DNA of 64,000 nt from Cyclobacteriaceae bacterium (GTDB lineage: Bacteria; Bacteroidota; Bacteroidia; Cytophagales; Cyclobacteriaceae), in contig JBLICU010000005.1 in NCBI GenBank assembly GCA_047632435.1, forward strand, positions 15 through 64,014, given 5' to 3'. Below the pieces are notes generated by a model, which saw only the letters and a list, made by a program, of their open reading frames with translations, had not been told where the DNA came from and did not search any database. Below, piece by piece: positions 13,686 to 34,389 of this stretch (positions are counted from its first letter, which is position 1; each line of letters opens with the position of its first letter). Both the position numbers and the translations under genes were made by a program.

Positions 13686-15512
13686 TCAAGGCCTTACTTT
13701 TTCATTCTCAGCTGGTTTATTGGTTTCGGAATAAAACTTCTGAAGTATGTAAAAAGCTTCCTTTTTCTGACCTGTATCCGATATTAGTCCTTTTCGGTTA
13801 AAGTCATTTTGGATATGCCTCAGGTTTCTTCTAGGGGATAGGAAGTCTTTTAAGATCCAAGGCGATACACCAGCAAGAAAATCTACCTTTTTCATCATTT
13901 CTATATTACAGCGGTATACTTCACTTTGATACTCCTCGGTCCAGCGCTCGTTCACGTCACCATGCAGACCCTGCAATGCTCCTGCCCCAAGTTCACTAAA
14001 AATCACAGGCTTATCAGATGGATTAGCCCAGGTTATATCAACACATTCCTGAGGTTTTTTGGAGTACCATCCACAATATGTATTAATTCCAATCACATCT
14101 ATGTAATTACCCAATGGATCATCTATAACTATCTCATTGTCTTTGCCTCGTTGTGTGTTTAATGCAGCTGTGATCAAACGTGTCGGATCTATCTTTCTGG
14201 CAGTATCGATAAGCGATTTAAGAAACGCTAAACGCTCCGCAGTGATAGGTGTCTCATTGGCCACTGACCATAACCCAATTGCAACTCTGTTCTTATCCCG
14301 ATTGATCATATCTGTGAGTTGCTTCTCTGCATTTTTATAAGTTTCGGGATTATCATAGTCAATAGTCCAGTAAACGGGAATCTCAGACCAGATCAAAAAA
14401 CCCATTTCCTCAGCAAGTTTCACCATAAACTCACTGTGAGGATAGTGTGCCAATCTCACATAATTACAACCCAATTCTTTCGCCCATCCTAATAGTATTT
14501 TGGCTTGATCAACAGAGACCACCCGCCCTGCTCCAAATGGAGCTTCTTCATGGATGCTAATTCCCTTTAAGAAAAGGTACTCTCCATTTAGTAAAATCTT
14601 TGACCCATCGGTGCTTATGGTCTTGAATCCTATTTGGTCTTCAATAATATCCTCTCCGAATTGGATACTTATTTCATAACGAATAGGATCAGATGGTGAC
14701 CATTTCTGAAGCTTTGGTACCAAAAATGAAAACGAAGCTTTACCTTCATTATTCGTTTTTACAGAAATACTTTTTCCAAGTTTGGGAATGCTAACAGTGA
14801 CTTGCTGCTTCCCCCTCTTAGCCCCGTCTAACGATACCCAGCCAACAACTTTATTGGCATTTTCTTGATCAAGCGAGAATGAGTAATCATTGATAAAAGT
14901 TTCAGACAATTCAATCAAAGACACGGTCCGTGTGATCCCGCCATAATTCCACCAATCAAAATTCACAGTTGGCACTCCATCTCGCAAACGTTTGTTATCG
15001 ACTTTGAGGATCAAAAAATTTTCATCCTGCAGCTGATCTGTCACATCAAAACCAAAAGAAGTATACCCTCCTACATGGTCGCCCAAATAAGTACCATTGA
15101 GATAGACTTTGCATTGATAGTTTACACCTTCAAAATTGAGGGCAGTTCGCACTCCAGTCTTTCGTTTGTATGAAAAAGAACGCTTATACCATACAGTGCC
15201 TTCATAATAGTAGAGTTTTTCCATCTGAGTATTCCAATCTCCCGGCACTTCCAGCTGGTAACTCTGATCAAAATCATATTCAATCAGGTCATCTGGCTGA
15301 TTCATTTTCTCATTTTTGAAGTAGCCATTTTTCCGCTCCTCTAAGCTATGATTGTATAATCCGTTTTCAAGCGGATCAATGATGATTTGCCAAAGTCCGT
15401 TCAAACTGACCTTATTTCTAGCGTCAACATTCTGGAGTGAGTACTCTTTAGACTGAGAGTGGCAGATAAAAGCCACTAACAAGAAGGCTGCTACAAATAC
15501 AGAATTTCTCAT
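13686..15512 (-). CDS. GH2 beta-glucuronidase, secreted
   Basis: Signal peptide, RLAHYPH, acid/base WSVANET, nucleophile SELGAG and the NxKG (FNRKG) motif that distinguishes beta-glucuronidases from beta-galactosidases. Confidence 0.88.
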   Translation of the reverse strand: MRNSVFVAAFLLVAFICHSQSKEYSLQNVDARNKVSLNGLWQIIIDPLENGLYNHSLEERKNGYFKNEKMNQPDDLIEYDFDQSYQLEVPGDWNTQMEKLYYYEGTVWYKRSFSYKRKTGVRTALNFEGVNYQCKVYLNGTYLGDHVGGYTSFGFDVTDQLQDENFLILKVDNKRLRDGVPTVNFDWWNYGGITRTVSLIELSETFINDYSFSLDQENANKVVGWVSLDGAKRGKQQVTVSIPKLGKSISVKTNNEGKASFSFLVPKLQKWSPSDPIRYEISIQFGEDIIEDQIGFKTISTDGSKILLNGEYLFLKGISIHEEAPFGAGRVVSVDQAKILLGWAKELGCNYVRLAHYPHSEFMVKLAEEMGFLIWSEIPVYWTIDYDNPETYKNAEKQLTDMINRDKNRVAIGLWSVANETPITAERLAFLKSLIDTARKIDPTRLITAALNTQRGKDNEIVIDDPLGNYIDVIGINTYCGWYSKKPQECVDITWANPSDKPVIFSELGAGALQGLHGDVNERWTEEYQSEVYRCNIEMMKKVDFLAGVSPWILKDFLSPRRNLRHIQNDFNRKGLISDTGQKKEAFYILQKFYSETNKPAENEKVRP

Positions 15513-15514
15513 GT

Positions 15515-17410
15515 TTATCGTTTTATAAATTTTGCTGAGAACTGGGTATCATTGGCATCAATCCCTTCCATGAGATAAACACCGTCCCCCAAATTCGACA
15601 GATCAATGGCTTCATTATTTTCTAATCGTAATTGTTTCACCAAAATGCCTTCTAACGTCCAAATTTTGATCGATCGAATCTGTAGATCAGTTCTTAACCA
15701 CATTTGATTATTGGTCACTGGGTTTGGGTATAATAATGCACCGGCAGAAAAATCAGTATTTAATACCTCATCTGATTCAATTAATTCATTTGATGCCTGA
15801 TGGATACCTATGTCAATAGAAATATTGCCAGCTATTGAATTACCGAAAAAATCAAATTTGGGTATACTTTCAAGCCTCAACCCTGATGCTCTTGCGGGTG
15901 AACTCTGGAGGAGCTGATAGCTGTTTTCACCCATGCCGATAGCGTTCAATTGTGGATCTTCAGTTACGGCATTTGTATCTTGAGGGGTCTTATAAGTGGT
16001 TTTTCCGAAATAAAGATTATGACTAAAGACATTCCTCAAACTAGGACCTAAATCATATTCACAACTGGCTCCCTCCACATAGAATATATTGTTATGAAAG
16101 AATGTGTCCTCAGGCTTGGCGCCACTCCAGCTTTTTGAGTAAATAACATGGGTAAAGTCTTGACCTTCTGGTATATAAACCAAATTGTTGTGGAAATAGG
16201 TATTGGTAGCAGATCCTGAAAAACGAACGGAAAACTTTCCATCAGAGCCTTTCCTAGCCATGTGGCCATCTCCTTCGATTATGTTGTATCTTATGATGGT
16301 GCGATCATTAAATCGACCTGGACCTCCCGTCACCAACAAACCAAAATCATTGTCATGAAGGTAATTATATTGGATAGTCGTGTTTTTAGAGCGATAATCA
16401 CTATCCACACCCCCAGCATCTTCATCATCCAAATTGGCCTTTGTTCGTTCAAATTCATTGAATTGCCAAAGCGTGTTGTCAGTATTGAAGTTAAATGCCG
16501 CATTGCCTGATCCTTTAATAGAACAGTCTGAAAATAAACATTGCTCTATAACCGCACCATCAGACACCCGCACGATCAAAGCGTTTACACCCGTTCTTAC
16601 AAACGTACAATTCCTAATCACATAGCTTTTGTTTGGCTTCCAATTTGAGTTTGAATTGAACTCACGGTTATCATAGTAAGACCAGTTGGAGATGCCTGTA
16701 CGATCAACATCATGGATATGGCAGTTTTCAATCAATAGGTCTTCAAAGTGACTAGAGGTAATTCCCTGAAAGATTTCCATGAAAATACCGCCATTGTCTT
16801 TTGTCCTTATATCTCCATTTATTCCATGAATCTCCAGGTTTCGAAAGGTCAGACCCTTAATTGCACCAGCGCTTTTCCCTTCCACAAGAACGCCACTCTT
16901 TTTTGAATTGCTACCAGCATATTGATGTGGTTCAACCATATCAACATAATCTGTAATGTTGCGCTGCTCCCACTCAGATAAAGTAAGGTTTGCCTCCTCG
17001 GAAGCTTCATAATTGGTAATTTCTAAATCTTCTATTACCCAATATTGCTGATTGTAGAGAAAAATGGTGCAGTAATGGCTCTCGCCAGCTTCATTTGTAC
17101 AATTAGTAAGCCCAGCTCCATTAATCACCGGATTGGATCCATCCCCATATCTTCCGATCACAATGGGCTTACCCTCAGCCCCAGAACCCTGGGGCTGAAG
17201 GGTACCCACCCATAGCTGGTCAGCTCTCATTAATATACTATCACCAGGATAAAATATGGTCGTATTAATATTGGCTAGTAACCTCCAGGCTGTTTCAGTA
17301 GAAGTACCTTCACCTGTGTCACTCCCACTTACCTGATTAATGTAGTAGTTAGTGCCATAGACATTCTGTATTAACAGAATAAGAATACTTACCATCAAAC
17401 ATAATTTCAT
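15515..17410 (-). CDS. Right-handed beta-helix carbohydrate enzyme with T9SS CTD (paralogue 1)
   Basis: YYINQVSGSDTGEG...PGDSILMR...GSGAEGKPIVIGRYG, DAGGVDSD and CTD LYPNPV...LGDGVYLM. ATG at 17410 preferred. Confidence 0.85.
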   Translation of the reverse strand: MKLCLMVSILILLIQNVYGTNYYINQVSGSDTGEGTSTETAWRLLANINTTIFYPGDSILMRADQLWVGTLQPQGSGAEGKPIVIGRYGDGSNPVINGAGLTNCTNEAGESHYCTIFLYNQQYWVIEDLEITNYEASEEANLTLSEWEQRNITDYVDMVEPHQYAGSNSKKSGVLVEGKSAGAIKGLTFRNLEIHGINGDIRTKDNGGIFMEIFQGITSSHFEDLLIENCHIHDVDRTGISNWSYYDNREFNSNSNWKPNKSYVIRNCTFVRTGVNALIVRVSDGAVIEQCLFSDCSIKGSGNAAFNFNTDNTLWQFNEFERTKANLDDEDAGGVDSDYRSKNTTIQYNYLHDNDFGLLVTGGPGRFNDRTIIRYNIIEGDGHMARKGSDGKFSVRFSGSATNTYFHNNLVYIPEGQDFTHVIYSKSWSGAKPEDTFFHNNIFYVEGASCEYDLGPSLRNVFSHNLYFGKTTYKTPQDTNAVTEDPQLNAIGMGENSYQLLQSSPARASGLRLESIPKFDFFGNSIAGNISIDIGIHQASNELIESDEVLNTDFSAGALLYPNPVTNNQMWLRTDLQIRSIKIWTLEGILVKQLRLENNEAIDLSNLGDGVYLMEGIDANDTQFSAKFIKR

Positions 17411-17475
17411 CCTCCCCTCTTGCCAATTAGCCATATGAGTTTTAATTTTTATCTATTTATCCTTGTCTATTCTCT

Positions 17476-20394
17476 TTAATATTTGATGATTCTTTCAGTA
17501 TATCGGTGACCAAAAACGTCGGTAAACCGAATCATATAGATACCTCGCTCGATTCCGCTCAGGTCAATCCGATCGCCTACAAGCTCACTTTGAGTAAGCA
17601 CCTTCACTTCTCTACCTTTAAGATCATATATACTCACAGCGTTAATGGGTGATTCACTTTGAAAGTTGAGATCTGTAGATGTAGGATTAGGGTATGTTTT
17701 GAATGTAGAAATCACTTTTTTAACTTCCGGTCCGGAGATCGCCATCCTTGCTCCAGAATTCAAAGTAATTTCCAGATAAGGTCTAAAGCCTGTGTTGGTA
17801 TTTTCAGAACTATAAAGCTGCGCCAATGCCCCGCTTTCCGCATCGTCACTCAACTTAATAGAGATTACACCATCTATTCCCAACTGCGTGTTAACAGCAG
17901 AGCCTATATCCAGTGTGTACCAGCTATTACTTGTGCCAACGCTTAGATCTCCGAGTGAATACGAGACTCCAGGTGCTGAATTATACGTGACAGTGGACTC
18001 ACTCCAGCTATCGGTGGCAGCTTTATATACATCTATGTTCATACTATAATCAGCATTTCCATAAATATTAAAAACAGCTGAAGCAACGCTACTGACTCCA
18101 AGTGAATTCATGTCAAATTTCAAAAAAGCCTCCCTCCTAAAGTTGACATTGGTAGTCCCTTTCACAGCCAATGTCTGTTCAGAACCATAGTTTGTGCTCG
18201 CGTAAGTTCCTGCACGGACGTAAGCATCATCACCAGGTGAAACAGCCGTAATTGTCGTACCCGCAACCACCAGGTAGGCCTTATATTGACTTTGCGTATT
18301 TTCTTTGCTGTAGAGATCTATGGTTTTGACGAGTCCCGCATCGTCCATCAGTCCAATCGAAAAGGTGCCGTTCCCGGTCATTTCATCCTGCGCAGCACTT
18401 GTCACATCCAGCTGTATCCAGCCATCGGACGTACCTACCGATGCGGCTGATATTAGCGAAGTAAATGAAGGGGCATTGCTCCAGTTGACAGTGGATTCAG
18501 TCCAGGTATCAGAAGATGCTTTGTAAGCATTGATATTCATATTTAGCTCCGCATTTCCGTACACAAACAAATGCGCTGAAGTAATTGCGCTATAGCTTGT
18601 CAGGTCAAACTTCAGGAGTGTCCTCCGAGTGAAACTGGCATTGCTACTTTCCTTCACCGTTAATAATTGTTCACTCCCATAATTTGTGCTGCTGTATGAT
18701 CCGCCTCTGATATGTGCATCTTCATTTACGTAAAGCGTGTCGCCCCCAGTACTGGCTGTACTCACTTGGTGCACACCTCTGTCAACAGGAGCCAGTGTAG
18801 CAATCTCGTTTTGATAATAATCTTCATCCGGGATAGATGCTATCCGAATGCCACTACCCAATGCTGGAGAACCTGACCCTAATTCATAGCCACTATCCCC
18901 TCCACCAGGATTGGACAGCAATGGATCTAAAGTGAGACCATTATTGTCCGTTGGCACATTTGACGCTGTATTGCCATAGAAGGTATTGTAAGCAAACAGA
19001 TTATCCGTGCTACTGGTGAACTCATAGGTACTATTTGATCCCAGGTTATAAAAAATATTATTGTAATAGGACGTATTATCTGGATAGCTACCGCTCCAAC
19101 CTTTGTGAAAAACAATCTTGGTAGAATCCTGGGAGCTACTTAAATAGATCACATTGTTGTGAAAGGTTGTATTAGTGGCCGCCCCAGAAGATCTTAAAAC
19201 AAACCACTTATCGTCCCCGTACCTTTTTACTTGTCCATCACGCTCGAAAATATTATACCTGACTATGGTTCCATCATTAAAATCCCCAGGACCTCCTGTT
19301 ACAAGCATCCCAAAATCATTATCGTGAAGATAGTTGTATTGGATAATAGTCCCTTTGGTGCGATAGTCACTATCTACTCCACCTGCATCATGATCTCCTA
19401 CATTCGCTTTTGTATATTCAAATTCATTGTATTGCCAGATGGTATTATCCGTATTAAAATTAAACGCAGCATTTCCAGACTCTTTTATTGAACAATGGTC
19501 AAAATGACAATTTTCAATCACTGCATTATCAGCTACTCTAACTATCAAGGCATTTGCTCCAGTGCGCTCAAAACTAGTGTTTCGTATCACCAAATTAGTT
19601 GTTGGTGTCCAATCGGTGTTGGTTGACAAAGTCCTATTATCATAATCTGATTCATTGGAAATACCCGTGCGATCTACATCATGGATGTAGCAATCTTCAA
19701 TCAGAATGTCATCGAAGTACGTTGGGGTTTCGGAACCAAAATTGAATATGCGAAAGAAAATTCCGCCGTTGTGTTTTTGCGAAATCTGGCCATTTACACC
19801 ATGTACTTCCAAATTAATAAAATGCAATTGACTCAATTCCCCTACATCATTGGCCTGAACCAGTACACCACATTTCTTCGTATTCGTGCCCGTGTACTTA
19901 CCCGGATTCGTGACATTCGCATAATCCGTTTCATTGTCACTTTCCCACTCACTTAGCGTAATGCTTGACTCTTCACTTGAGTCATAATTGGTAATTTCAA
20001 GATCTCGGATAACCCAATATTCCTGATTGTAGAGAAGTATGGTGCAATACTTTGTCTGACCAGGCTCCACGGTACAATTCGAGGATCCATCCCCATTGAG
20101 TGCTGGTCTACTGCCACTGCCGTACATTCCTATTACAATAGGGTTACCTGATGAACCAGAACCTTGTGGTTTTATCGTTCCGGTCCATGATTGACCCGCT
20201 TTAAAAAGGATACTATCTCCCGGCTGAAAAGTAGTCGTGTTAATATTTGCAAGTGTTTCCCATGCTGCCATCTGCGAAGTTCCACTATTGCCATCATCTC
20301 CTGAGACAGAGTCAATGTAGTAGTTGGTCGCAAGACAAGGCCATGCTGCACTGAGCATTATAATGGCCAATAAGCGTTGAGCGTGTTTCATCAT
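17476..20394 (-). CDS. Right-handed beta-helix enzyme + two DNRLRE (CBM96-like) modules + T9SS CTD (paralogue 2)
   Basis: Same catalytic-domain motifs as paralogue 1. Two modules of form DA[HY][IV]R.G.Y...NYGSE...R...LKFD at ~18270-18745 and ~17760-18250. CTD TYPNPT...RGIYMI. Confidence 0.85.
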   Translation of the reverse strand: MMKHAQRLLAIIMLSAAWPCLATNYYIDSVSGDDGNSGTSQMAAWETLANINTTTFQPGDSILFKAGQSWTGTIKPQGSGSSGNPIVIGMYGSGSRPALNGDGSSNCTVEPGQTKYCTILLYNQEYWVIRDLEITNYDSSEESSITLSEWESDNETDYANVTNPGKYTGTNTKKCGVLVQANDVGELSQLHFINLEVHGVNGQISQKHNGGIFFRIFNFGSETPTYFDDILIEDCYIHDVDRTGISNESDYDNRTLSTNTDWTPTTNLVIRNTSFERTGANALIVRVADNAVIENCHFDHCSIKESGNAAFNFNTDNTIWQYNEFEYTKANVGDHDAGGVDSDYRTKGTIIQYNYLHDNDFGMLVTGGPGDFNDGTIVRYNIFERDGQVKRYGDDKWFVLRSSGAATNTTFHNNVIYLSSSQDSTKIVFHKGWSGSYPDNTSYYNNIFYNLGSNSTYEFTSSTDNLFAYNTFYGNTASNVPTDNNGLTLDPLLSNPGGGDSGYELGSGSPALGSGIRIASIPDEDYYQNEIATLAPVDRGVHQVSTASTGGDTLYVNEDAHIRGGSYSSTNYGSEQLLTVKESSNASFTRRTLLKFDLTSYSAITSAHLFVYGNAELNMNINAYKASSDTWTESTVNWSNAPSFTSLISAASVGTSDGWIQLDVTSAAQDEMTGNGTFSIGLMDDAGLVKTIDLYSKENTQSQYKAYLVVAGTTITAVSPGDDAYVRAGTYASTNYGSEQTLAVKGTTNVNFRREAFLKFDMNSLGVSSVASAVFNIYGNADYSMNIDVYKAATDSWSESTVTYNSAPGVSYSLGDLSVGTSNSWYTLDIGSAVNTQLGIDGVISIKLSDDAESGALAQLYSSENTNTGFRPYLEITLNSGARMAISGPEVKKVISTFKTYPNPTSTDLNFQSESPINAVSIYDLKGREVKVLTQSELVGDRIDLSGIERGIYMIRFTDVFGHRYTERIIKY

Positions 20395-22522: not shown

Positions 22523-22538
22523 ATTGTTCGTTTAATGG

Positions 22539-25359: not shown

Positions 25360-27024
25360 TTAATAACTAGGGTTATTACTTATTTTGAAATCAAGATTTG
25401 CATCAATAAAAGATTGCGGAATCGGAAATAGCTTATCTCTTTCTATCATTTTTCCAGATGCATTTACATTGTACAGATTGGTTCTTTCAATCCATTTATT
25501 ATTTCTGAGTAGCGTGTATCTCCTATGCTCTTCCGAAAAAAGCTCCCGAGCTCGCTCATCTAAAATAAGATCAATGTCAATTTCTGCCGGAGTTACTTGA
25601 GTTGCATTGGCACGATTTCTTAATTCATTGATATAGAATGCAGCATTGTTAGGGTCACTATTTTTGAAATACGCCTCTGCCAATAAGAGATAAGTATCAG
25701 CAAGCCTTAGATAAATCTGATCATTAAAAGCTCTGCTTTCGCTTGGATCAACCACATGTGACCAATCCCACTTACGAGTGTAGGGTCTAATTCTATCTCC
25801 AAGAGGATCCTCCGGGGTGAAGTCCAGCCATAATGTATCACCGACACTTCCAGCTGTGGATGGATCTTCTTCGCTCACTACAAAATAAGTCCGCCAGCTA
25901 AACTCATCGCCCCTATCATCTATCACCACCCCATTGTTATCCCGATAAAGATCAAACACAAACTTGGTGGCTGAAAGACGAGTATTTCCTCTACCACCTC
26001 GATCTATGGTGACAGCCAACCCAGGAGCTCCGCCACTAGAACTGCTATACTCACTCATGAACCATCGTCTCATGATATTGTGCCCTTGTCCTCCTTCCAC
26101 TTCATATTCATTTTGTAGCACCCACAAGGCTTCTGTATTACCCTCACTCGGATTGGAATTGCCGCTCAGAAACATATCACTATAAGGAGTTCCTGGAAAC
26201 GAAGAATTTACACCATATCTATTAGTTACAAGTGAGCGAGAACCTCCTATGGCTTCAAGTGCTAATGAAATAGCCGCAGAATACTCCTCCTCGATTATCA
26301 ACAATTCAGTTAAATAGTGCTGAGCCACAGCTTTGATAATCTTACCATCATTTAAATGAACTTCTGGTAAGTGCATGACCGCAAATTCTAAATCCTCTTT
26401 TATAAATTCTCGAATATCAGCAACAGATGTTCGTTCCCAGTCAAGACGAACATTTTCACCCGTAGATTCCTCCTTGACCAAAGGCACATCACCATATAGA
26501 AAGGTAAGATGACGGTACGCCCACGCTCTCATGGTTTTGGCTTCACCTGAAATTCTATTCAAAGTACTTTCATCAATACCTCCTCCTCCAAATTGATCTG
26601 CTCTATTGATTATGGTGTTGGAAGCATTGATAATTTCATATAACCAATTCCATGTCCCACTGAAGTATCCTTGAGCAGCATTTCCCAATACTTGCTCTCC
26701 CCAATCATTGAGGAAAAGTTCAGCATTCCATGGTCGGTTGCCGTAGATGATGTCCGTTCCAGCCATCATCATTGCACATGTCAGGTTATTACTATTGCCA
26801 GTAGGGTTACTATTACTTGGTAGTCCGGCTCGTTCAACACGTGCCAGCGCATAGAGGCCATTTAGTCCTGCATCAAACCCCACCTCATCTACATAGAGAT
26901 TATCAGGTGCTATGACATGAGGGATTTCTTGATCTAAGAATTGGTCTTGACATGACACACTAACCAAGATGGTAACTGCCAAAATGAATGTTTTGATTAT
27001 GTAATGTTGGGGTTGCTTTTTCAT
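25360..27024 (-). CDS. susD: SusD/RagB-family glycan-binding lipoprotein
   Basis: SVSC lipobox, GEAKTMRAWAY..L...YGDVP, YLRLADTYLLLAEA and DERARELFSEEHR...L.R. Confidence 0.93.
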   Translation of the reverse strand: MKKQPQHYIIKTFILAVTILVSVSCQDQFLDQEIPHVIAPDNLYVDEVGFDAGLNGLYALARVERAGLPSNSNPTGNSNNLTCAMMMAGTDIIYGNRPWNAELFLNDWGEQVLGNAAQGYFSGTWNWLYEIINASNTIINRADQFGGGGIDESTLNRISGEAKTMRAWAYRHLTFLYGDVPLVKEESTGENVRLDWERTSVADIREFIKEDLEFAVMHLPEVHLNDGKIIKAVAQHYLTELLIIEEEYSAAISLALEAIGGSRSLVTNRYGVNSSFPGTPYSDMFLSGNSNPSEGNTEALWVLQNEYEVEGGQGHNIMRRWFMSEYSSSSGGAPGLAVTIDRGGRGNTRLSATKFVFDLYRDNNGVVIDDRGDEFSWRTYFVVSEEDPSTAGSVGDTLWLDFTPEDPLGDRIRPYTRKWDWSHVVDPSESRAFNDQIYLRLADTYLLLAEAYFKNSDPNNAAFYINELRNRANATQVTPAEIDIDLILDERARELFSEEHRRYTLLRNNKWIERTNLYNVNASGKMIERDKLFPIPQSFIDANLDFKISNNPSY

Positions 27025-29969
27025 TATAGGCTGAAGTTTAATCCGAAAACAATTTCCTTTTGCAATGGCACTGATCGTTGGCTACTTAACTCTGGATCTA
27101 GTCCTGTCCAATCTGTTATTGTGATTAGATTTCTTAATGTCGTATAAACTCGTAATCCAGAAATACCTGTCTTACCAAGCAAGGAATCATTAAAAGTGTA
27201 GGATAATGTAATGTCCTTGACTCTCATAAAATCTGCACTTTGATAGAATCCGACATTATAGATATTAGCTTGGGGATGATTTCTGTGAAAGGTTTTAATA
27301 GGATCTTCTTGAGTCCAATAGTCTAATACAAACCAGTTTCGCTTTACACCACCATAGACGTTTTCATCGTAAATGGTATTTCTCTTGGTTACTCCTTCTA
27401 CACCATGTATGAAAACATACAATGAAAAGCCTTTATACTTTAACGTATTAGTAAGTCCCCAGGTAGTTTTTGGGTCTCGCTGACCTTGAATAGCTCGGTC
27501 ATGTTCTGAAGATATTCCAAGGACTGGATTACCATCTGTATCAATTGGGTTGTCAATATCTTTTACTTTCACATCACCTGGATGAGCATTAGGTTGAGCA
27601 CTCTCTGTTGCATCTTCACCCTCTTGCCAGATTCCATCAAACACCAAACTATAATTTGATCTTATAGGCTTTCCAATGAATAATCCATTTCCGATATCGT
27701 CTTGATTTTTCCCGAATAGGGAAACAATCTCATTACGGTTGAAGGACATATTTCCTGCAATATTCCAGGTGAAATCCTTTTTATTTATCGCAAATCCTGA
27801 GGTAGATAGCTCAATACCTTCATTCTGAACTTTACCAATATTCTGAGTGATCTCTGTAATCCCATGGACGGAAGGGATGAGTCTATCCAGCAGCAAATCT
27901 GATGTGCTGGCTCTATAAATATCTGCTGAAAACTGAACACGATCAGAGATGAGTCCTAGATCTAAACCAAAATTGAGGGTTGCCGTTTTCTCCCAACTCA
28001 ATTCATTATTAGCTAATTGATTTGGTACAAACCCCGGTGCAGTTTGACTTCCATTTAAATAAGAGCGATCGCTCAAGCGGGCTAAATTATCATAAGGTCC
28101 CACTGCCTGATTGCCATTCTCTCCGTAAGAGATTCTGAATTTAGCTTTGCTCACGAAACTAGTAGGGAAAAAAGCTTCATCTCCTATATTCCAACCTACT
28201 GCTACTGACGGGAAAATTCCGTACTTGTTTTCATCTCCGAAACCTGAAAACCCATCTCGTCTTACAGTCATGGTTACCATGTATTTATCAGCATAGCCAT
28301 AATTGACCCTAGCCATTTGAGATAGAAGTGTTGTTTGGGTGAAACTGCTTGATGGACTTATTCCTACTGCTAGATGATTTTGATAGTAGGTAAGTAAGTC
28401 ACTTGGGAAACCTACTGCATCTACTCCGTTATCTTCTGATTTGATCTTTTGAGCACTGTAAAGCCCCGTGAATCCGATAGAGTGCTTCCCAAATGTAGCA
28501 GAGTAGTTTAAGATATTTTCTAGCAAAAAGTTTTCATCTGATTGATTGCTCACCTGTGCATCCCCTCCTGATGTAAAACCTCTAGCTGTATTCCTTCCCC
28601 AGTAGGTACCAATCTTTCTTGCACCCACTTCTATACCAGTATTAATCTTGTAGGACAACCCTTCAAGAAAAGGAAATGAATACATTAGGTAATTGGTTGT
28701 GAAAATTTTATTATTTATATCGTCATTCACCGCTAGCGTGGGTGCCAACGCGTTTTCGAAAAACTGATCCTCTGGCCAAGGGAAGATGGTAGGGCTACCA
28801 TCACTATCATATGCTGAACTCAGAGGATTGAGAAAATAAGCTCCAGCAGCTTCTCCCCCAAAGTCTGGATCTAAACCAGACCTATCAATTCTGGAAAGCT
28901 GAGTAGAAGTACCGAATTTCAGATCCTTGGTAATATCAAAACTGAGATTAACTCTCAACGATACTCGATTAAAGTTATCATTAATAGCTACACCCTGAGC
29001 ATCCAGATAACCCATGGACACATAATATTTGGCATTATCAGTCGCACCAGAAACTGACAAATTATGCTCTTGCTTAACTCCTGTCTGTGTAGCGAGAGAA
29101 AGCCAATCAGTGCCTTTACCTTGGGCAAGTAGATCAAGCTCTGATGGAGTGAGCTCACCTGGCTCCCTTGTTTCTTTGAATGCGGCAAAGCCAGGTCCAT
29201 CATATACGGCTGGAACATTGCCAATATCGGAGATACCAATATATCCACTATAGGTGATTTTAGGCTGACCTTTTGTGCCTTCTTTTGTTTGAATTAAAAT
29301 CACACCATTAGCTCCTCTCGATCCATAAATTGCTGTTGCAGATGCGTCTTTCAAGACAGTCATATTTTTAATATCTGACGTATTGATATCAGAAATACTA
29401 CCCGCATAAGGCACGCCATCAAGAACGATTAGAGGGGAGTTGGAAGCATTGATTGAGTTCCTACCTCTAATCAAAATGCTTACATCATTTTGCTCGGCAC
29501 TAGAGGAATTAAGTGTTATGTTAACTCCAGGCAAAGCACCTTGAAGCGCTTGGCTAAAATTGGTGTTTGGCTTGGCATCTATTCTATTCACATCAATCGA
29601 TGCTACCGAACCTGTTAAATCACTTTTCTTTTGAGACCCATATCCTACAACAACAATTTCTTCAAGTGCGTGAATGTCATCTGGAAGCACAAAATTGATT
29701 AAGGATCTTCCACCCACCTTTGCTGTTTTACTTTCAAAACCTACAAAGGAGGCTATAAGGTTTGCTTCGGGATTCACCATAATTTGGTAATTTCCATTCA
29801 CATCTGTTACAGTTCCATTATTTGCACCAACTTCTTGAATGGTGGCCCCAGGTAATGGCTCACCGTTTGAATCTTTAACAACTCCTGTCAATTGAATTGA
29901 AGAATTCTGTGCATTTAGGTTTGTCAATATGACGAATAAAAAAATAATTTGCGTAAGGTATCTCCTCAT
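27024..29969 (-). CDS. susC: SusC/RagA TonB-dependent transporter
   Basis: CarboxypepD-like N-terminus, EEIVVVGYG, LKDASATAIYGSRGANGVILI, WEKT and C-terminal GLNFSL. Confidence 0.96.
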   Translation of the reverse strand: MRRYLTQIIFLFVILTNLNAQNSSIQLTGVVKDSNGEPLPGATIQEVGANNGTVTDVNGNYQIMVNPEANLIASFVGFESKTAKVGGRSLINFVLPDDIHALEEIVVVGYGSQKKSDLTGSVASIDVNRIDAKPNTNFSQALQGALPGVNITLNSSSAEQNDVSILIRGRNSINASNSPLIVLDGVPYAGSISDINTSDIKNMTVLKDASATAIYGSRGANGVILIQTKEGTKGQPKITYSGYIGISDIGNVPAVYDGPGFAAFKETREPGELTPSELDLLAQGKGTDWLSLATQTGVKQEHNLSVSGATDNAKYYVSMGYLDAQGVAINDNFNRVSLRVNLSFDITKDLKFGTSTQLSRIDRSGLDPDFGGEAAGAYFLNPLSSAYDSDGSPTIFPWPEDQFFENALAPTLAVNDDINNKIFTTNYLMYSFPFLEGLSYKINTGIEVGARKIGTYWGRNTARGFTSGGDAQVSNQSDENFLLENILNYSATFGKHSIGFTGLYSAQKIKSEDNGVDAVGFPSDLLTYYQNHLAVGISPSSSFTQTTLLSQMARVNYGYADKYMVTMTVRRDGFSGFGDENKYGIFPSVAVGWNIGDEAFFPTSFVSKAKFRISYGENGNQAVGPYDNLARLSDRSYLNGSQTAPGFVPNQLANNELSWEKTATLNFGLDLGLISDRVQFSADIYRASTSDLLLDRLIPSVHGITEITQNIGKVQNEGIELSTSGFAINKKDFTWNIAGNMSFNRNEIVSLFGKNQDDIGNGLFIGKPIRSNYSLVFDGIWQEGEDATESAQPNAHPGDVKVKDIDNPIDTDGNPVLGISSEHDRAIQGQRDPKTTWGLTNTLKYKGFSLYVFIHGVEGVTKRNTIYDENVYGGVKRNWFVLDYWTQEDPIKTFHRNHPQANIYNVGFYQSADFMRVKDITLSYTFNDSLLGKTGISGLRVYTTLRNLITITDWTGLDPELSSQRSVPLQKEIVFGLNFSL

Positions 29970-30120
29970 ATAGGGGTTGTTTTAATTAAATTGATTCAGT
30001 ACAAATAAATCACAAACAAAATCATGGTCAACAAAAGAGCGCCAATTACAAAAAGTCTGAATGGTAATTTCATATGGCTATGATAGCCTAATTAAATATT
30101 TCTCCTCACAGGAGCTGGAT

Positions 30121-30175
30121 TCATTTTAACCTGACTACCGATACTTACGCATTTTCCATGTATCATTTTAACCTG
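30121..30175. promoter_or_regulatory. 13-bp direct repeat, candidate HTCS operator
   Basis: TCATTTTAACCTG at 30121-30133 and 30163-30175 (42-bp period), in the divergent susC/HTCS intergenic region. Confidence 0.55.
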
Positions 30176-30236
30176 CCAAATGTTTCATCACAGCCTAAAA
30201 GCTTGAATTTGTATCCTTCAATGGTTTTGGTTACCA

Positions 30237-30244
30237 TATTTTTG
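30237..30244 (+). promoter_or_regulatory. sigmaA -7 element upstream of the HTCS
   Basis: TATTTTTG exactly matches TAnnTTTG. Confidence 0.4.
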
Positions 30245-30309
30245 CTACTATATAATTTAATTCAAAATATATCAAAATGACGTTTCGAATTCCATGTAAT
30301 ATTAACTAA

Positions 30310-33300
30310 ATGTTAAAGTCATTTCTCCATGTGATAATTCTTAACCTAGCTGTTTTAGCAGGTTCATTCGGGGCAGATCAAATACAATTTGATCATATAA
30401 TTGAACTTCCCGACAACCCTGTCTTTTGTATAACACAAGACAAAAAAGGTTTTATGTGGTTCGGAACCAAAAATGGTCTTTTGAAATTTGATGGTCATGA
30501 ATTAACCACATTTAACTCAAGTGATGACGACAGCACATCCCTCACCAATGATTGGATTTGGTCAATTTACTGTGACACCCGGTCTGAACTATGGATCGGC
30601 AGTGCGGACGGTCTTAATCTTTGGATAGACAAAGAAAATCGATTTCAAAGAATCGTACTTCCTTCATCGGAAAACGGGAAGAACAAGCCAGTTACCATAA
30701 GAAAAATATATGAAGATAAACAAGGAAATCTGTGGATCGGAACCAATCATGGCCTTTATATTAAATCCTATGATAATCCGGATTTCCATAAATGTGACTT
30801 AAGCTATGGACTGAGTCAATTAACAGATTATGATATCAAAGAAATATTCGAGGGCTCGAACAATCATTTGTATGTCGCAACACAATTTGGTATTTCCTCA
30901 ATTGTTAATAGAAAACTTTCGTATCAAACAATTCCGGCCAACCTAGTTCTTAAAATTGATAATCAAATTGAGGATACAAGATCTGTATACTCCGACGCAA
31001 TAAATGATGTTTTTTGGATCGGAACCCAGTCAGAAATGACTGGTCTTATAAAATCACAAAACCGAAGTGGTAAAAATGAGATAATTACGTTAAAAGGATC
31101 CGTCGAAATTAATAGTATCAGAATAATCCGAAATTTTGGAGATAATACCCTTTGGTTAGGAACAATGAACGGGTTGATACAACTAGATACTCTGACTAAT
31201 ACTACTGAAAAACACTTAAACCACCTTTCAATTAGAGATATTTACCAGGATATCGAAAAAGGGCTCTGGGCGGCCACATACAATGATGGAATATATTACT
31301 ATTCGCCAAATTCCAACCGATTTGAGCATATTTATGAATACGCCAAGCCATTCTCCACACAAGAACAAAACCGAAGTGAGGTGGTCACTGATGTCGTACA
31401 ATCGAAGGACAATCAAATATGGATCGGTACAGAATATGGTCTCAAAGTCTATAGGCCTGACCACAAGAATTTTCCTATTCATTTAAATAGAACAATGCAA
31501 ACAGCTATTGTCAATGATCGTGTAAAATGTCTTGAATATACGAATGATAATATGCTTTGGGTGGGGACATTTAATGGAATTAGCTGTCTCGATTTAACAA
31601 ACGGAAATATAAAAAACTATGTTCCAACATCTAACCCTAAAAATCAGGGTTGGAATGAAATCCATGATCTAATAAAGATTAAGGAAGAGGTGTGGATTGG
31701 TACAAATGGTGGTGGGGTATTTTGCCTTGATAGAGATTTTCGCTTCACACAACATGCCGACCATTTTATTCGAGGAGCGAATTATGTAAACGCTATGCAT
31801 TCCTTTACTGATAGTATCATTTGGATAGGCTCAAATGCCGGATTAAGTGCTATCAAACCTGATGGTAGGGAATTTAAAAAATTTGGATCCAGCAATTATA
31901 TGTTTCCAGAGGTGAACGTAATTTCCATAACACATGATAATAAAAATAATTTATGGTTGGGTACTGAAAGATCAGGACTGATTTACTTTGATCCACAGTC
32001 TTTCGATTTTCTAAGGATCAACAAGGAGAATGGTTTACCGGATAATAACATAAAGTCGGTACAAATTGATGTATCTCAAAACCTTTGGGTCACCACACAA
32101 CAAGGACTTCTAAACATTTCTCTATCGCCCAAAGAAGATCTTCAATCAACATCTTTTGAGGTTTATGATTTTTCTATCAATACAGATTTTGGCAAACCAC
32201 TATTCTTAAGTAATAGCACAACCAAAACGTCATCTGGAGAAATACTTTTTGGAACACATCATGGTATTACCTATTTTGATCCATCTCAAATATCAAGTTC
32301 CCGCAAGTACCCTAAAGTATGGATAAGGGATATCAGTATAAACCAGCAAAAAATAACCATTAACAAGGATTTATCATTGAAATATGGCAATACTGAAGAA
32401 TTGCTTGTGTTGAGTCTGGAACATTACGAGTCTGTTCTATCGTTTTACTTCACGGGCATTAATTATAGTAATCAAGATGAGCTTTATTATGCATACAACA
32501 TAGATGGAATTAATGATAGATGGGAGATAATTAACAAACAGCGTCAGCTAAGCTTCAATTACCTACCACCAGGAAAGTATACATTAAGACTTAAATCAAG
32601 CAATTCAAAACAAAATTGGGGAAGTGACTACACCGCATTAGACCTCATTATAAATCCTCCTTTTTATAAGTCGCTGATTGCTTTTCTTATTTATGGGGTA
32701 ACCATTTTAGCACTACTTTATATATTCTTCTATTACTCTTCCAACTGGCAAAAAATGAAAAATCGCCTTGTAATCGAAGAACTTAATAAGAACAAAGAAT
32801 ATGAACTTCATCAGTTAAAATCGGAGTTTTTTATTAATATTTCTCATGAGCTCAAAGCACCATTGACGTTAATTCTTGCCCCAGTTGAGGATTTACTAGC
32901 TCAAAAAATTGAAAATACTGGAGTGCGCAACCGATTAAAAATGGTCAAACGAAACGCTGAGAGGATTTTGAAATTGGTAAATCAAATTGTGGATGTAAGG
33001 AAAATTGAAACCTCTCGTGAGAGCTTAAATGTAGCTAAATACGACATTATAGCATTCATTCATGAGGTTTCTTCAGTGTTCAATGAATTATCCAGAATCA
33101 AAAATATTGAATTCAATATAAGTTCTAGCAGTGAAAATATTGATCTTTGGTTCGATCGAAATAAATTAGAAACAGCCATTTCGAATCTCCTCTCAAATGC
33201 GTTTAAATACACCAAAGAAAACGGTAAAATTGAAGTGTCTATTGTCACTCAAAAAAGGTCAAAAGGGTTAGATGAAGATGATCAGGTTAATATTATCATT

Positions 33301-34389
33301 GAAGATAATGGGAAAGGAATAGCTCAGGAAGATATCCCACATCTCTTCGACCGTTTTTATCACATTTCAAATAGAAATAAACGTCTTTCTATAGGTGATG
33401 GCATTGGGTTGGATTTGGCTAAAAAATGTATCGAAATACAAAAAGGTTCAATAAAAATTGAAAGTCTTCAGGAAAATGAAAGAACAAGTGGTCTTACTAG
33501 AATCACTATTTCCTTAAAACGAGGAAATCAACATTTTGATGATAATGACGTAACAAATGAGCCGTTACATCATTCATCAACTAAAGACCCTGATCTCAAT
33601 GACTATGCTCTCATAAACCTCATTGATGCAAAAGCTAGCGATAGCAATATTGATGACTATTCCATTTTGATTGTAGATATCAACTCTGAATCGATTCAAC
33701 AAATTCGTGATATATTTTCAAATTGCAATCATATATATGACACTTCTGATGGTTTGGAAGCATGGAAATTGACTCTGGATATAATTCCTGACATTGTAAT
33801 TAGTTCAGAAAGTGCCGGCACAATTGATGGAGAAGAATTATGTCATAGAATAAAAATAGATGAACGCACATGTCACATTCCTGTAATTCTTCTATCTGAA
33901 CAAAATCAATTTAATAATCAAGCTGAGTTTGTGCCTGATGAGTTTATTGCTAAACCAATTAATGCGGATTTTCTAAAGCAGAGAGTTGAATACTTTATTG
34001 ATCAAAGAAACAGAATAAGACGACAATTTGAAAAGAAATCAATATTGAAACCCAATCAGATAACTTCTTATGATGAGAAAATGTTAGATAGCGTAATCAA
34101 CTATATTGAGGATCACCTGTCCGACCCTAATCTATCTGTAGAGCGTATGAGCAAAGAAATTGGGATCAGCAGGGTTCATTTTTATAGAAAAATAAAATCA
34201 GTAATGAACATGTCCCCTAATGAATTCATCCGATCCTATCGAATAAGAAAAGCGGGACAATTGCTTGAACAGAAAAAACTTAATATTTCGGATGTTCGGA
34301 TGATGGTTGGTTTCAATGATGCAGATTACTTCAGATCTTGTTTTAAGAAAGAATTCGGTGTAAATCCTTCGGATTTCATGAAGGACTAA
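30310..34389 (+). CDS. Hybrid two-component system (beta-propeller sensor, Y_Y_Y, TM, HisKA, HATPase, atypical REC, AraC HTH)
   Basis: Repeated LWIGT propeller blades, YLPPGKYTLRLKSSN, SHELKAPLT, NLLSNAFKYT, DNGKGI and AraC (SKEIGISRVHFYRKIK...GFNDADYFRSCFKKEFG). Confidence 0.95.
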   Translation: MLKSFLHVIILNLAVLAGSFGADQIQFDHIIELPDNPVFCITQDKKGFMWFGTKNGLLKFDGHELTTFNSSDDDSTSLTNDWIWSIYCDTRSELWIGSADGLNLWIDKENRFQRIVLPSSENGKNKPVTIRKIYEDKQGNLWIGTNHGLYIKSYDNPDFHKCDLSYGLSQLTDYDIKEIFEGSNNHLYVATQFGISSIVNRKLSYQTIPANLVLKIDNQIEDTRSVYSDAINDVFWIGTQSEMTGLIKSQNRSGKNEIITLKGSVEINSIRIIRNFGDNTLWLGTMNGLIQLDTLTNTTEKHLNHLSIRDIYQDIEKGLWAATYNDGIYYYSPNSNRFEHIYEYAKPFSTQEQNRSEVVTDVVQSKDNQIWIGTEYGLKVYRPDHKNFPIHLNRTMQTAIVNDRVKCLEYTNDNMLWVGTFNGISCLDLTNGNIKNYVPTSNPKNQGWNEIHDLIKIKEEVWIGTNGGGVFCLDRDFRFTQHADHFIRGANYVNAMHSFTDSIIWIGSNAGLSAIKPDGREFKKFGSSNYMFPEVNVISITHDNKNNLWLGTERSGLIYFDPQSFDFLRINKENGLPDNNIKSVQIDVSQNLWVTTQQGLLNISLSPKEDLQSTSFEVYDFSINTDFGKPLFLSNSTTKTSSGEILFGTHHGITYFDPSQISSSRKYPKVWIRDISINQQKITINKDLSLKYGNTEELLVLSLEHYESVLSFYFTGINYSNQDELYYAYNIDGINDRWEIINKQRQLSFNYLPPGKYTLRLKSSNSKQNWGSDYTALDLIINPPFYKSLIAFLIYGVTILALLYIFFYYSSNWQKMKNRLVIEELNKNKEYELHQLKSEFFINISHELKAPLTLILAPVEDLLAQKIENTGVRNRLKMVKRNAERILKLVNQIVDVRKIETSRESLNVAKYDIIAFIHEVSSVFNELSRIKNIEFNISSSSENIDLWFDRNKLETAISNLLSNAFKYTKENGKIEVSIVTQKRSKGLDEDDQVNIIIEDNGKGIAQEDIPHLFDRFYHISNRNKRLSIGDGIGLDLAKKCIEIQKGSIKIESLQENERTSGLTRITISLKRGNQHFDDNDVTNEPLHHSSTKDPDLNDYALINLIDAKASDSNIDDYSILIVDINSESIQQIRDIFSNCNHIYDTSDGLEAWKLTLDIIPDIVISSESAGTIDGEELCHRIKIDERTCHIPVILLSEQNQFNNQAEFVPDEFIAKPINADFLKQRVEYFIDQRNRIRRQFEKKSILKPNQITSYDEKMLDSVINYIEDHLSDPNLSVERMSKEIGISRVHFYRKIKSVMNMSPNEFIRSYRIRKAGQLLEQKKLNISDVRMMVGFNDADYFRSCFKKEFGVNPSDFMKD

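Follow-up and report, generated by a model that had tools for sequence, protein, structure and literature searches.

The closest described enzymes to those discussed here are the lacto-N-biosidases of family GH136, of which LnbX (B. longum, 5gqc), ErLnb136 (E. ramulus, 6kqs/6kqt), BsaX (7v6i) and TnX (7v6m) were used for comparison. Characterised members require a GH136-I/LnbY partner, and in ErLnb136 the acid/base is D568 and the nucleophile D575 (PMC7335108). At the level of whole loci, the predicted PUL 37 of Saccharicrinis fermentans DSM 9555 combines GH2-CBM57, GH136, CE6, SusCD, sulfatases, GH50, GH88 and an HTCS (bioRxiv 10.64898/2026.05.19.726164). This PUL has been screened experimentally and is listed as 'Undetermined' in Suppl. 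Table 4 of that study, with no activity listed for the GH136 protein (bioRxiv 10.64898/2026.05.19.726164). A further GH136 PUL, from Winogradskyella, has been called 'enigmatic' (PMC9723794).

The window analysed here is a 64,000-nt stretch of DNA from a Cyclobacteriaceae bacterium. With a probability of about 0.6, we read the locus that it contains as an accessory PUL in working order, which would break down an O-acetylated acidic glycan with beta-linked glucuronate, or possibly galacturonate, by a wholly hydrolytic route. The presence of a trio of GH136-like proteins alongside an acetyl-esterase and a candidate beta-glucuronidase points to lyase-free digestion of an acetylated glucuronate polymer.

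Organisation of the locus

The locus consists of a divergent HTCS gene and an eight-gene operon on the minus strand encoding SusC, SusD, a lipoprotein, three beta-helix paralogues (BH1 to BH3), a CBM96-CE6-CBM96 esterase and a GH2 enzyme. The first-pass annotation had listed SusCD, the lipoprotein, three beta-helix proteins, an acetylesterase, four DNRLRE modules and a GH2 with the NxKG motif, and every one of these was recovered in its place. The first gene of the operon encodes a SusC-like TonB-dependent transporter (27024-29969, minus strand; Pfam Plug 1e-19 and CarboxypepD_reg), and it overlaps by 1 nt with the adjacent gene for a SusD-like glycan-binding lipoprotein (25360-27024, minus strand; SusD_RagB 3e-29 and SusD-like_3). 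The CAZyme genes are co-oriented with this pair and the gaps between the eight genes do not exceed 81 bp. Compared with their counterparts in syntenic loci, SusC is 47-70% and SusD 42-71% identical. The third gene encodes a 337-aa lipoprotein (24267-25280, minus strand; lipobox FISC followed by an acidic SEDE), probably a surface glycan-binding protein. Searches with this protein gave no Pfam family and no PDB sequence match, and a weak match to a choice-of-anchor-D Ig-like model; orthologues occupy the same position in the related loci L017 (63%), L025, L028 and L034.

All nine open reading frames of the locus are full length and intact, with conserved catalytic motifs. Just 3' of the GH2 stop codon lies a palindromic hairpin with a perfect 13-bp stem (13645-13673), a candidate terminator that would close the operon. 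Housekeeping genes lie on both sides of the PUL. To its left is FeoAB, and to its right are tRNA-Arg(TCT) and tRNA-Ser(GCT) (34754-34948, minus strand; ARAGORN and Rfam), which mark the right edge of the accessory region, together with a VWA protein and a thiolase. Two congeners lack the PUL. No match to GH88, GH105, sulfatase or lyase/PL families was found among the nine locus proteins or in the flanks, in line with the earlier observation that these functions are missing from the locus.

The HTCS sensor/regulator (30310-34389, plus strand; Pfam Reg_prop, Y_Y_Y, HisKA, HATPase_c and HTH_18) has kinase and AraC domains with good Pfam scores; Response_reg, at 26 bits, stays below its cut-off of 30. 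In its receiver a Ser (approximately 33805-33807) replaces the phospho-acceptor Asp, the alignment reading ISSESA where 14 homologous HTCSs read ISD[VIL][ML]MP. The acidic pocket is degenerate as well, with IVDIN instead of the VV[ED]DN of most of the 14 homologues, and the GC content of the HTCS region is 0.33-0.35 compared with about 0.40. Since the receiver lacks the phospho-acceptor Asp, regulation of the locus, and perhaps its expression too, may be atypical or impaired.

The beta-helix proteins

BH1 (548 aa; 22539-24185, minus strand) is a lipoprotein (LFSC-QEV) with sequence and fold matches that mark it as a candidate GH136-like beta-helix hydrolase, and an orthologue is found in L017. 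In BH2 (972 aa; 17476-20394, minus strand) a GH136-like catalytic domain (18751-20328) is followed by two CBM96 modules (aa 552-712 and 723-876; 18259-18741 and 17767-18228) and a T9SS CTD (17482-17694), the Pfam matches being CBM96 (1.3e-70) and Por_Secre_tail. BH3 (639 aa; 15515-17434, minus strand) combines the GH136-like catalytic domain with a T9SS CTD (15518-15733; Pfam Beta_helix 2.5e-10 and Por_Secre_tail), and its orthologues occur in L017, L025, L028 and L034. The three proteins share 46-57% pairwise identity over about 530 residues (49% between BH1 and BH2, 57% between BH2 and BH3), and the 3.9-Mb genome contains no further copy.

When BH1 was compared with the PDB by phmmer, GH136 entries only were returned (2e-21). 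In a profile search of the PDB only GH136 lacto-N-biosidases were significant (E 1e-46 to 4e-31), and the sole match outside the family was marginal (46 residues, E 0.02). The AF2 model of BH1 (pLDDT 92.9) gave a corresponding result in Foldseek, where the best six matches were all GH136 (E 1e-22 to 1e-19, TM 0.59-0.75), followed by GH120 (2e-8) and PL6 (about 1e-7, TM 0.37-0.50).

The motif DxDAGGxDSD is present in all three paralogues, as DHDAGGIDSD at aa 339 in BH1, DHDAGGVDSD at aa 334 in BH2 and DEDAGGVDSD at aa 337 in BH3. It contains D341 of BH1 (23163-23165, minus strand), the candidate acid/base, and D348 (23142-23144, minus strand), the candidate nucleophile. In the profile alignment these residues correspond to D411 and D418 of LnbX, which we take to be its acid/base and nucleophile, respectively. 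A PDB chain of the same protein reads WDASYG where LnbX has WDADYG, which fits a mutant of the nucleophile site. Among 40 family members the equivalent of D348 is invariant and that of D341 is kept in at least 90%, and the conserved F318 aligns with the aromatic platform W548 of ErLnb136. On sequence and modelled fold, BH1-BH3 are relatives of the GH136 lacto-N-biosidases and not unclassifiable proteins, and they are best read as retaining hydrolases of the GH136 type rather than lyases, which agrees with the hydrolase function proposed in the first-pass annotation.

Identity to the characterised GH136 enzymes is just 20-22%, and specificity is for that reason not transferable. The score of 58 bits with the NCBIfam LnbX equivalog model, for which the cut-off is 2500, shows that the match is not that of an LnbX orthologue. 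Nothing resembling the GH136-I/LnbY partner was found among the locus proteins, neither as a gene nor as an N-terminal domain; the beta-helix begins at about aa 29, and alignments with ErLnb136 start from residue 245 of the latter. The gene context argues for a predicted substrate other than that of the lacto-N-biosidases.

The esterase, the CBM96 modules and the GH2 enzyme

The acetylesterase (692 aa; 20444-22522, minus strand) is predicted to be secreted and matches Pfam SASA (PF03629, 3e-48), CBM96 (2.6e-57) and Por_Secre_tail. Its CE6/SASA domain (21284-21949) lies between a first CBM96 (aa 23-187; 21962-22456) and a second one (aa 424-579; 20786-21253), with a T9SS CTD at the end (20450-20668). 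The SGNH blocks are GQSN at aa 199 (GxSx) and DSTH at aa 392 (DxxH), and the nearest solved structure is the acetylxylan-esterase-related 1zmb (3.5e-13). The four CBM96 modules (DNRLRE; PF24517/NF033679) of about 160 aa each are divided equally between the esterase and BH2, and the first modules of these two proteins are 60% identical. The founding member of CBM96 binds alginate (PMC9971899). Type-A C-terminal domains of the T9SS, which received no emphasis in the first-pass annotation, scored above the curated cut-offs in BH2, BH3 and the esterase (PF18962 32.9-38.5 bits, cut-off 27; TIGR04183 29.6-40.8, cut-off 23).

The last gene of the operon (13686-15512, minus strand) encodes a BuGUS-1-like GH2 with a signal peptide, a candidate beta-hexuronidase with a probable location in the periplasm. 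Its best PDB matches are 6d1n (BuGUS-1, 6e-202), to which it is about 58% identical over the full length by a hand count from the alignment, and 7vqm (1.4e-178). WSVANET, with the acid/base NE, and IFSELG, with the nucleophile Glu, align with the BuGUS-1 motifs, and the NxKG motif is present as NRKG at aa 572-575 (13788-13799) with Arg residues upstream (SPRRNLRH). Since 7vqm, next after BuGUS-1 among the distinct solved relatives, carries the deposited name 'GH2 beta-galacturonate AqGalA', GalA is a possible substrate. Pellock et al. reportedly found in 2019 that BuGUS-1 processes both GlcA and GalA. Either epimer offers the C6 carboxylate that is bound by the NxK motif (PMC12243196). The BuGUS-1-like clade is a generalist one, with a GH136-like neighbour in only 2 of the 80 other loci found to carry such a GH2, and the GH2 enzyme alone therefore says little about the polymer.

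Related loci in Bacteroidota

Relatives of the GH136-like family were found in 46 Bacteroidota loci. A candidate beta-glucuronidase is encoded in 36 of the 46; among the 32 loci with a length of 15 kb or more, 28 have one. Three types occur: BuGUS-1-like GH2 in 8 loci, long NxKG-bearing GH2 in 9 and GH50-like in 26. Experiments have shown hydrolysis of pNP-beta-GlcA by GH2-CBM57 enzymes and by the GH50 members of two comparable PULs (bioRxiv 10.64898/2026.05.19.726164). An esterase of either kind is present in 24 of the 46 loci, as a CE6/SASA domain in 15 and as a large alpha/beta-hydrolase esterase in nine further ones, and in six loci CE6 and the GH136-like domain are fused in one polypeptide. 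It is this recurrence of beta-glucuronidase candidates and esterases that suggests a hydrolytic route and an O-acetylated glycan with beta-GlcA or GalA. The idea that the products end in a beta-hexuronate, already put forward in the first-pass annotation, gains from the same gene context, and its suggestion of O-acetylation is corroborated by the CE6 fusions. Relatives also keep minimal versions of the locus (HTCS-SusC-SusD-GH136-like-GH2), which suggests a simple repeating unit of GlcA and one other sugar. A hyaluronan- or chondroitin-like unit of GlcA-beta1,3-HexNAc, the example initially proposed, would be one candidate, compatible with the HexNAc that the GH136 enzymes characterised so far place in subsite -1. 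A SurA/PrsA-like gene, U361, adjoins a separate basal clade of GH136-like genes in other loci and is absent from the window.

Proposed mode of action and alternatives

With gene content, homologies, catalytic residues and sorting signals read from the sequence, we infer the following enzyme activities and order of action. The T9SS would export BH3, the CBM96-CE6-CBM96 esterase and BH2, which carries two CBM96 modules of its own. Extracellularly, the CBM96 modules may hold the polymer, from which the esterase would strip O-acetyl groups, and the retaining GH136-like enzymes would cut the backbone, in exo or endo mode, by means of the Asp-x6-Asp pair. By analogy with lacto-N-biosidases, short units would be released, plausibly disaccharides, with beta-GlcA at the non-reducing end. 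These products would be bound by the 337-aa lipoprotein and SusD and imported by SusC, and the lipoprotein paralogue BH1 would trim them at one or the other face of the outer membrane. The periplasmic GH2 would then remove the terminal beta-hexuronate, which could be catabolised by UxaC and UxuA, for which two genes and one gene, respectively, are found elsewhere in the genome.

The same architecture could act on a polymer with beta-GalA, the GH2 enzyme then being a beta-galacturonidase. The closeness of AqGalA, the two substrates reported for BuGUS-1 and the indifference of the NxK motif to the epimer all speak for this reading, but we consider it unlikely, given that the GH50 and GH2-CBM57 partners in related loci act on pNP-beta-GlcA and that, to our knowledge, beta-GalA is rare in known glycans. 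It is quite improbable that BH1-BH3 retain an ancestral type of specificity and release neutral disaccharides of the Gal-beta1,3-HexNAc type from animal or algal glycoconjugates, with the GH2 enzyme removing an occasional GlcA cap. Such a function would be in keeping with the catalytic pair and aromatic platform that they have kept, and every GH136 enzyme characterised so far is a lacto-N-biosidase or a Lewis-type variant that takes GlcNAc in subsite -1 (PMC7335108). However, these products would need further processing, and neither a beta-galactosidase nor a GH20, GH112 phosphorylase, fucosidase or sialidase is encoded in the locus, the equivalog score is far below its cut-off, and the consistent partners over the 46 loci are of another kind.

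We give very little weight to the reading that BH1-BH3 form an unrecognised family of polysaccharide lyases and that the locus follows the usual lyase route. Many uronate lyases have a right-handed beta-helix, Foldseek returned PL6 and PL9 structures with E values of 1e-7 to 1e-5, and alginate is the ligand of the founding CBM96 (PMC9971899). Against this, the GH136 matches in Foldseek are better by about 15 orders of magnitude, profile matches are confined to GH136 apart from the marginal one, the Asp pair of a retaining hydrolase is conserved, no locus protein has a PL match in Pfam, and GH88/GH105 enzymes for unsaturated ends are lacking. The locus could also be a decaying or silent accessory island in which the regulator has lost its phosphorelay and the enzymes are out of use. 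The altered receiver and acidic pocket, unlike those of the 14 homologous HTCSs, the lower GC content around the HTCS and the absence of the PUL from the two congeners are in keeping with decay, yet the nine intact reading frames with their catalytic motifs and the well-scoring kinase and AraC domains make it doubtful, and we hold a functional hydrolytic PUL to be the better account.

Comparison with known systems

The first-pass annotation did not recognise the type of PUL. This has to be revised, as the combination of GH136, CE6 and beta-glucuronidase is already catalogued: PULDB/CAZy annotation labels such proteins GH136 and CE6, the S. fermentans GH2-GH136-CE6-GH50 PUL has been screened, and the Winogradskyella GH136 PUL has been described. 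The BH proteins and the GH136 lacto-N-biosidases have in common the right-handed beta-helix fold (TM 0.59-0.75), the Asp-x6-Asp pair, an aromatic residue in place of the Trp that stacks at -2, and the N-terminal cap sequence. They differ in their low identity (20-22%) and in that the BH proteins have no LnbY/GH136-I chaperone, either as a partner or as a domain. The enzymes characterised so far come from Gram-positive gut bacteria and, in those cases that are described in PMC7335108, act together with ABC-transporter solute-binding proteins, whereas the BH proteins belong to a Bacteroidota SusCD PUL and carry T9SS CTDs and CBM96. GH112 phosphorylase and LNT are partner and substrate of the lacto-N-biosidases, as opposed to a beta-glucuronidase and CE6 esterase and, presumably, an acidic and acetylated glycan in the window.

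GH136, CE6 and a beta-glucuronidase likewise come together within a SusCD/HTCS locus in S. fermentans PUL 37, and GH136-like proteins in two loci of Saccharicrinis MAGs (L038 and L039) are 40-45% identical. PUL 37 has sulfatases, GH50 and GH88, of which the window PUL has none, and its sulfatases imply that it targets a sulfated glycan. The window PUL in turn has the BuGUS-1-like GH2, three GH136 paralogues and the CBM96/T9SS appendages. The Winogradskyella forsetii PUL, likened here by its description, is likewise a GH136-based system of marine Bacteroidota for which no substrate is named (PMC9723794), but it includes sulfatases, unlike the window PUL. BuGUS-1 of Bacteroides uniformis resembles the window GH2 even in the N-terminal loop, and both BuGUS-1 and AqGalA share with it the catalytic glutamates and the NxKG motif for the carboxylate; the genomic context differs, the clade occurring in many unrelated neighbourhoods. 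Finally, the lyase-based uronate/GAG PULs (PL6 or PL8 with GH88) are, like the window PUL, SusCD systems for acidic uronate glycans, but where they employ a lyase and GH88/GH105, the window PUL would rely on a retaining GH and a glycosidase for saturated uronate.

Results

The PUL at window 13686-34389 is a divergent pair. Its HTCS gene lies on the plus strand (30310-34389), and its minus-strand operon of eight genes runs from 29969 down to 13686 with no intergenic gap above 81 bp. The operon encodes SusC (Pfam Plug and CarboxypepD_reg), SusD (also assigned by Pfam), a 337-aa lipoprotein matching neither a Pfam family nor a solved structure, three beta-helix paralogues, an esterase and a GH2 protein. 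Among the paralogues, BH1 (548 aa) has a sub-threshold match to Pfam Beta_helix, BH2 (972 aa) carries two CBM96 modules and a T9SS C-terminal domain (CTD), and BH3 (639 aa) has Beta_helix and a CTD. The 692-aa esterase (20444-22522, minus strand) reads CBM96, SASA, CBM96 and CTD in Pfam, giving four CBM96 modules in the locus. Every component listed in the first-pass annotation was borne out by gene calls, Pfam and motifs, including the NxKG glucuronidase motif of GH2 (608 aa, assigned by Pfam; 13686-15512, minus strand), seen as NRKG at residues 572-575. The claimed absence of GH88, GH105, sulfatase and lyase families also holds, as Pfam found none of them in the locus or its flanks. Twelve nucleotides past the GH2 stop codon lies a perfect palindrome with a 13-bp stem, CTGCTTAATTGAT TTA ATCAATTAAGCAG (window 13645-13673), a possible bidirectional terminator.

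The HTCS has a degenerate receiver (window 33658-34010) in which Ser replaces the phospho-acceptor Asp (codon at about 33805-33807). In an alignment with 14 homologous HTCSs the receiver reads ISSESAGTIDG against their ISD[VIL][ML]MPxxDG, and IVDIN against VV[ED]DN in most of them; Pfam Response_reg scored under its cut-off, and the kinase and AraC domains appear intact. The GC content of the HTCS gene is clearly below that of the adjoining enzyme operon (0.33-0.35 versus 0.39-0.42; window 30001-34000).

Housekeeping genes flank the PUL on both sides, DtxR/FeoA/FeoB on the left and tRNA-Arg, tRNA-Ser, a VWA protein, a TPR protein and a thiolase on the right. The left border is at the end of feoB (window 13199-13685) and the right border at tRNA-Arg(TCT) and tRNA-Ser(GCT) (34754-34948). 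Two same-genus genomes without the PUL keep both flanks, at 80-94% identity on the protein level, but on separate contigs adjoining unrelated genes. The site is thus a variable accessory region, and for the same reason it cannot be demonstrated that an island was simply inserted between FeoB and VWA.

BH1, BH2 and BH3 are pairwise 46-57% identical across about 530 residues. When BH1 was compared with the PDB by phmmer, the only matches were GH136 lacto-N-biosidases (7v6m at 2e-21, 6kqs and 5gqc), and a five-sequence profile matched GH136 at 1e-46 to 4e-31 with no other significant match. An AlphaFold2 model of BH1 built from 40 relatives (mean pLDDT 92.9) placed GH136 chains in the top six positions in Foldseek (E 1e-22 to 1e-19, TM 0.59-0.75), with the GH120 XylC (2e-8) and PL6 lyases (about 1e-7) next in rank. 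D411 and D418 of LnbX (5gqc), which we take to be its acid/base and nucleophile, align with D341 and D348 of BH1. One LnbX chain has WDASYG in place of WDADYG, which would fit a nucleophile-site mutant. In ErLnb136 (6kqs) the acid/base is D568 and the nucleophile D575 (PMC7335108). The motif DxDAGGxDSD is common to the three paralogues; D348 does not vary among the 40 relatives, at least 90% of which keep D341. The conserved F318 of BH1 aligns with W548 of ErLnb136, a Trp stacking against the −2 sugar. By the PDB matches, the Foldseek ranking and the conserved Asp pair, BH1-3 are predicted to be distant GH136-type retaining hydrolases.

Two other readings of these proteins were considered. Beta-helix proteins acting as lyases would find some backing in the PL6 folds among the Foldseek matches, but the GH136 matches are better than these by about 15 orders of magnitude, there is no PL sequence match and the hydrolase Asp pair is kept. 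The first-pass annotation, which held the beta-helix proteins to be hydrolases and not lyases, is therefore upheld by sequence matches and best folds that are all GH136. Orthology to lacto-N-biosidases, the very enzymes that BH1 retrieved, was rejected on an identity of 20-22% to solved GH136 members, a score of 58 bits against the cut-off of 2500 for the NCBIfam LnbX equivalog model, and the absence of any partner for processing lacto-N-biose. The GH136-I/LnbY partner that characterised GH136 members require (PMC7335108) was not found in the beta-helix proteins or the locus by PDB sequence searches. A distant GH136-type relationship is thus preferred to both. In a maximum-likelihood tree BH1 pairs with an orthologue from another genome (L017), and BH3 clusters with orthologues from L017, L025, L028 and L034 with BH2 as sister, so the paralogues are older than this species.

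Along its whole length GH2 aligns with Bacteroides uniformis BuGUS-1, including the N-terminal loop of that enzyme (6e-202; about 58% identity by manual alignment count). The next distinct match, at 1.4e-178, is an entry deposited as 'GH2 beta-galacturonate AqGalA', on which a literature search found no relevant paper. WSVANET, SELG and NRKG are kept, and judged from these likenesses the protein is probably a beta-hexuronidase for GlcA or GalA. Its clade has at least 593 relatives in many phyla, and a GH136-like gene was near in just 2 of 80 other loci with a BuGUS-1-like GH2 that were inspected; GH2 was therefore rejected as a marker of the substrate.

Few genomes in the GTDB family of the source organism carry the beta-helix family (5 of 201), and both same-genus genomes searched lack it. 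A contig scan with a single protein query gave three distant Clostridia matches and no more; one with an alignment query gave 60 loci, 46 of them in Bacteroidota. A neighbourhood census of the related loci yielded three recurring layouts. Type A, in Cytophagales and including the window, is sulfatase-free and has, besides SusCD and a lipoprotein, between one and three GH136-like genes plus a BuGUS-1-like GH2 (62-67% identical); its minimal form, HTCS-SusC-SusD-GH136-like-GH2, is found in e.g. Agaribacillus aureus and a 9-Mb Cyclobacteriaceae MAG. Type B, carried mainly by uncultured Bacteroidales MAGs with isolate names that suggest lake origin, joins SusCD and an HTCS to a large esterase and two further proteins, one GH136-like (780 aa) and one of 475 aa. 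In type C, from Flavobacteriaceae and Marinilabiliales of mostly marine taxa, a GH136-like gene is accompanied by sulfatases, a small CE6, the 475-aa protein and a GH2 of about 900 aa (range about 830-907 aa, with NxKG); some of these loci add GH88-like, GH39-like or PhoD-like genes.

The 475-aa protein (cluster U475, related loci L021-L062) is GH50-like (BpGH50 5t3b, 3e-65) and neighbours the GH136-like family more often than any other protein (26/46 loci). In Cytophagales type A loci the BuGUS-1-like GH2 appears to replace it, which looks like non-orthologous displacement of a beta-glucuronidase step. Two PULs of this kind encode GH50 enzymes active on pNP-beta-GlcA, CytfeDRAFT_4604 (Saccharicrinis fermentans) and AXE80_10390 (W. 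fucanilytica), and a GH2|CBM57 enzyme shares this activity (bioRxiv 10.64898/2026.05.19.726164). A candidate beta-glucuronidase of at least one of three types (BuGUS-1-like GH2, long GH2 with NxKG, GH50-like) is present in 36 of the 46 loci, and in 28 of the 32 that are at least 15 kb long. The association is one-sided: members of the GH136-like clade tend to have some glucuronidase nearby (36/46), but the reverse hardly holds (2/80), as would be expected if the products of the GH136-like enzymes end in beta-GlcA.

Fifteen loci have a CE6 domain, which in six of them is fused to the GH136-like domain in one polypeptide. These CE6/SASA fusions (L017:2084-8809, L023:3132-6770, L026:4183-7353, L029:416-4399, L033:3-2453 and L055:8852-12844) are giant multidomain proteins of 816-2241 aa and form a Rosetta-stone link between both activities. 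Nine further loci have the large esterase. Together, these loci and fusions tie O-acetyl removal to the substrate of the GH136-like proteins. Within the window, the N-terminal CBM96 of the esterase (21962-22456) is 60% identical to the first CBM96 of BH2 (18259-18741), other CBM96 pairs being about 30% identical, which suggests recent module duplication or exchange between two secreted proteins.

A protein of about 360 aa without a Pfam family, U361, adjoins a GH136-like gene in six of seven loci. For the U361 copies at L025:6124-7197, L028:6125-7198, L034:2478-3587, L041:3009-4094 and L058:3174-4331, this neighbour is of a basal GH136-like clade, separate from the main clade; a truncated copy (L035:9394-9978) lies between basal-clade and main-clade genes, and the copy at L050:16602-17912 lies between HTCS and esterase. 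Its AlphaFold2 model (pLDDT 82) resembles SurA/PrsA/PEB4-type chaperones, including 5ez1, a fold with which the ErLnb136-I domain was compared, and U361 may be what corresponds to LnbY in Bacteroidota. The window lacks U361, and its three paralogues are of the main clade, which has no partner.

Discussion

Homology, sorting signals and gene context suggest how the locus may operate. The esterase, BH2 and BH3 would be exported by T9SS, and CBM96 modules would bind the polymer as it is deacetylated. The GH136-like enzymes would then hydrolyse it to short oligosaccharides capped with beta-hexuronate, possibly disaccharides by analogy with the biosidases. These would be captured by the acidic-lipobox lipoprotein and SusD, imported by SusC and trimmed by the lipoprotein BH1, before GH2 takes off the uronate for catabolism by UxaC and UxuA. 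UxaC (two copies) and UxuA are encoded elsewhere in the genome.

A simple repeating unit is suggested by the minimal PULs, which have just two enzymes. One candidate substrate is an unsulfated GAG-like polymer, in which GlcA-beta1,3-HexNAc would mirror the Gal-beta1,3-HexNAc of known GH136 substrates; another is O-acetylated beta-glucuronan or another polyuronate, which fits the alginate binding of the founding CBM96 member (PMC9971899). We tentatively propose, with a probability of roughly one in four, that the GH136-like clade comprises stand-alone 'glycuronobiosidases' that hydrolytically release beta-GlcA-capped disaccharides, then split by a beta-glucuronidase. Examples would be GlcA-beta1,3-HexNAc from unsulfated GAG-like polymers and GlcA-GlcA from O-acetylated glucuronan.

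CAZy/PULDB annotation of comparable loci already reads GH136, CE6 and GH2, and the S. fermentans PUL 'GH2|CBM57 GH136 CE6 ... GH50 ... GH88 HTCS' was listed as 'Undetermined' after an experimental screen (bioRxiv 10.64898/2026.05.19.726164); GH136 PULs of marine Bacteroidota have been called enigmatic (PMC9723794). As families and PULs were already annotated, the window locus is a new, sulfatase-free form of a catalogued, functionally orphan PUL type. Our literature searches found no paper characterising this GH136-like clade and nothing relevant on hydrolytic glucuronan degradation in PULs.

The clade is large, substrate-orphan and without a chaperone partner, and in environmental Bacteroidota it lies consistently beside beta-glucuronidase candidates and acetylesterases. 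This PUL group is at its simplest in the sulfatase-free locus of the window and in the two-enzyme forms of cultured relatives (e.g. Agaribacillus aureus BMA12), which hence offer the most tractable entry to the substrate and to a possible lyase-free route for acidic glycans. Such a route matters for carbon turnover in aquatic systems and for enzyme tools directed at uronate-containing polymers. To our knowledge, GH136 is otherwise known solely from gut Gram-positive bacteria, in milk- and mucin-glycan metabolism, and we know of bacterial degradation of polyuronate or GAG-like glycans only via lyases. If the proposed glycuronobiosidase activity is true, marine and freshwater Bacteroidota would possess a complete hydrolytic pathway for such a glycan.
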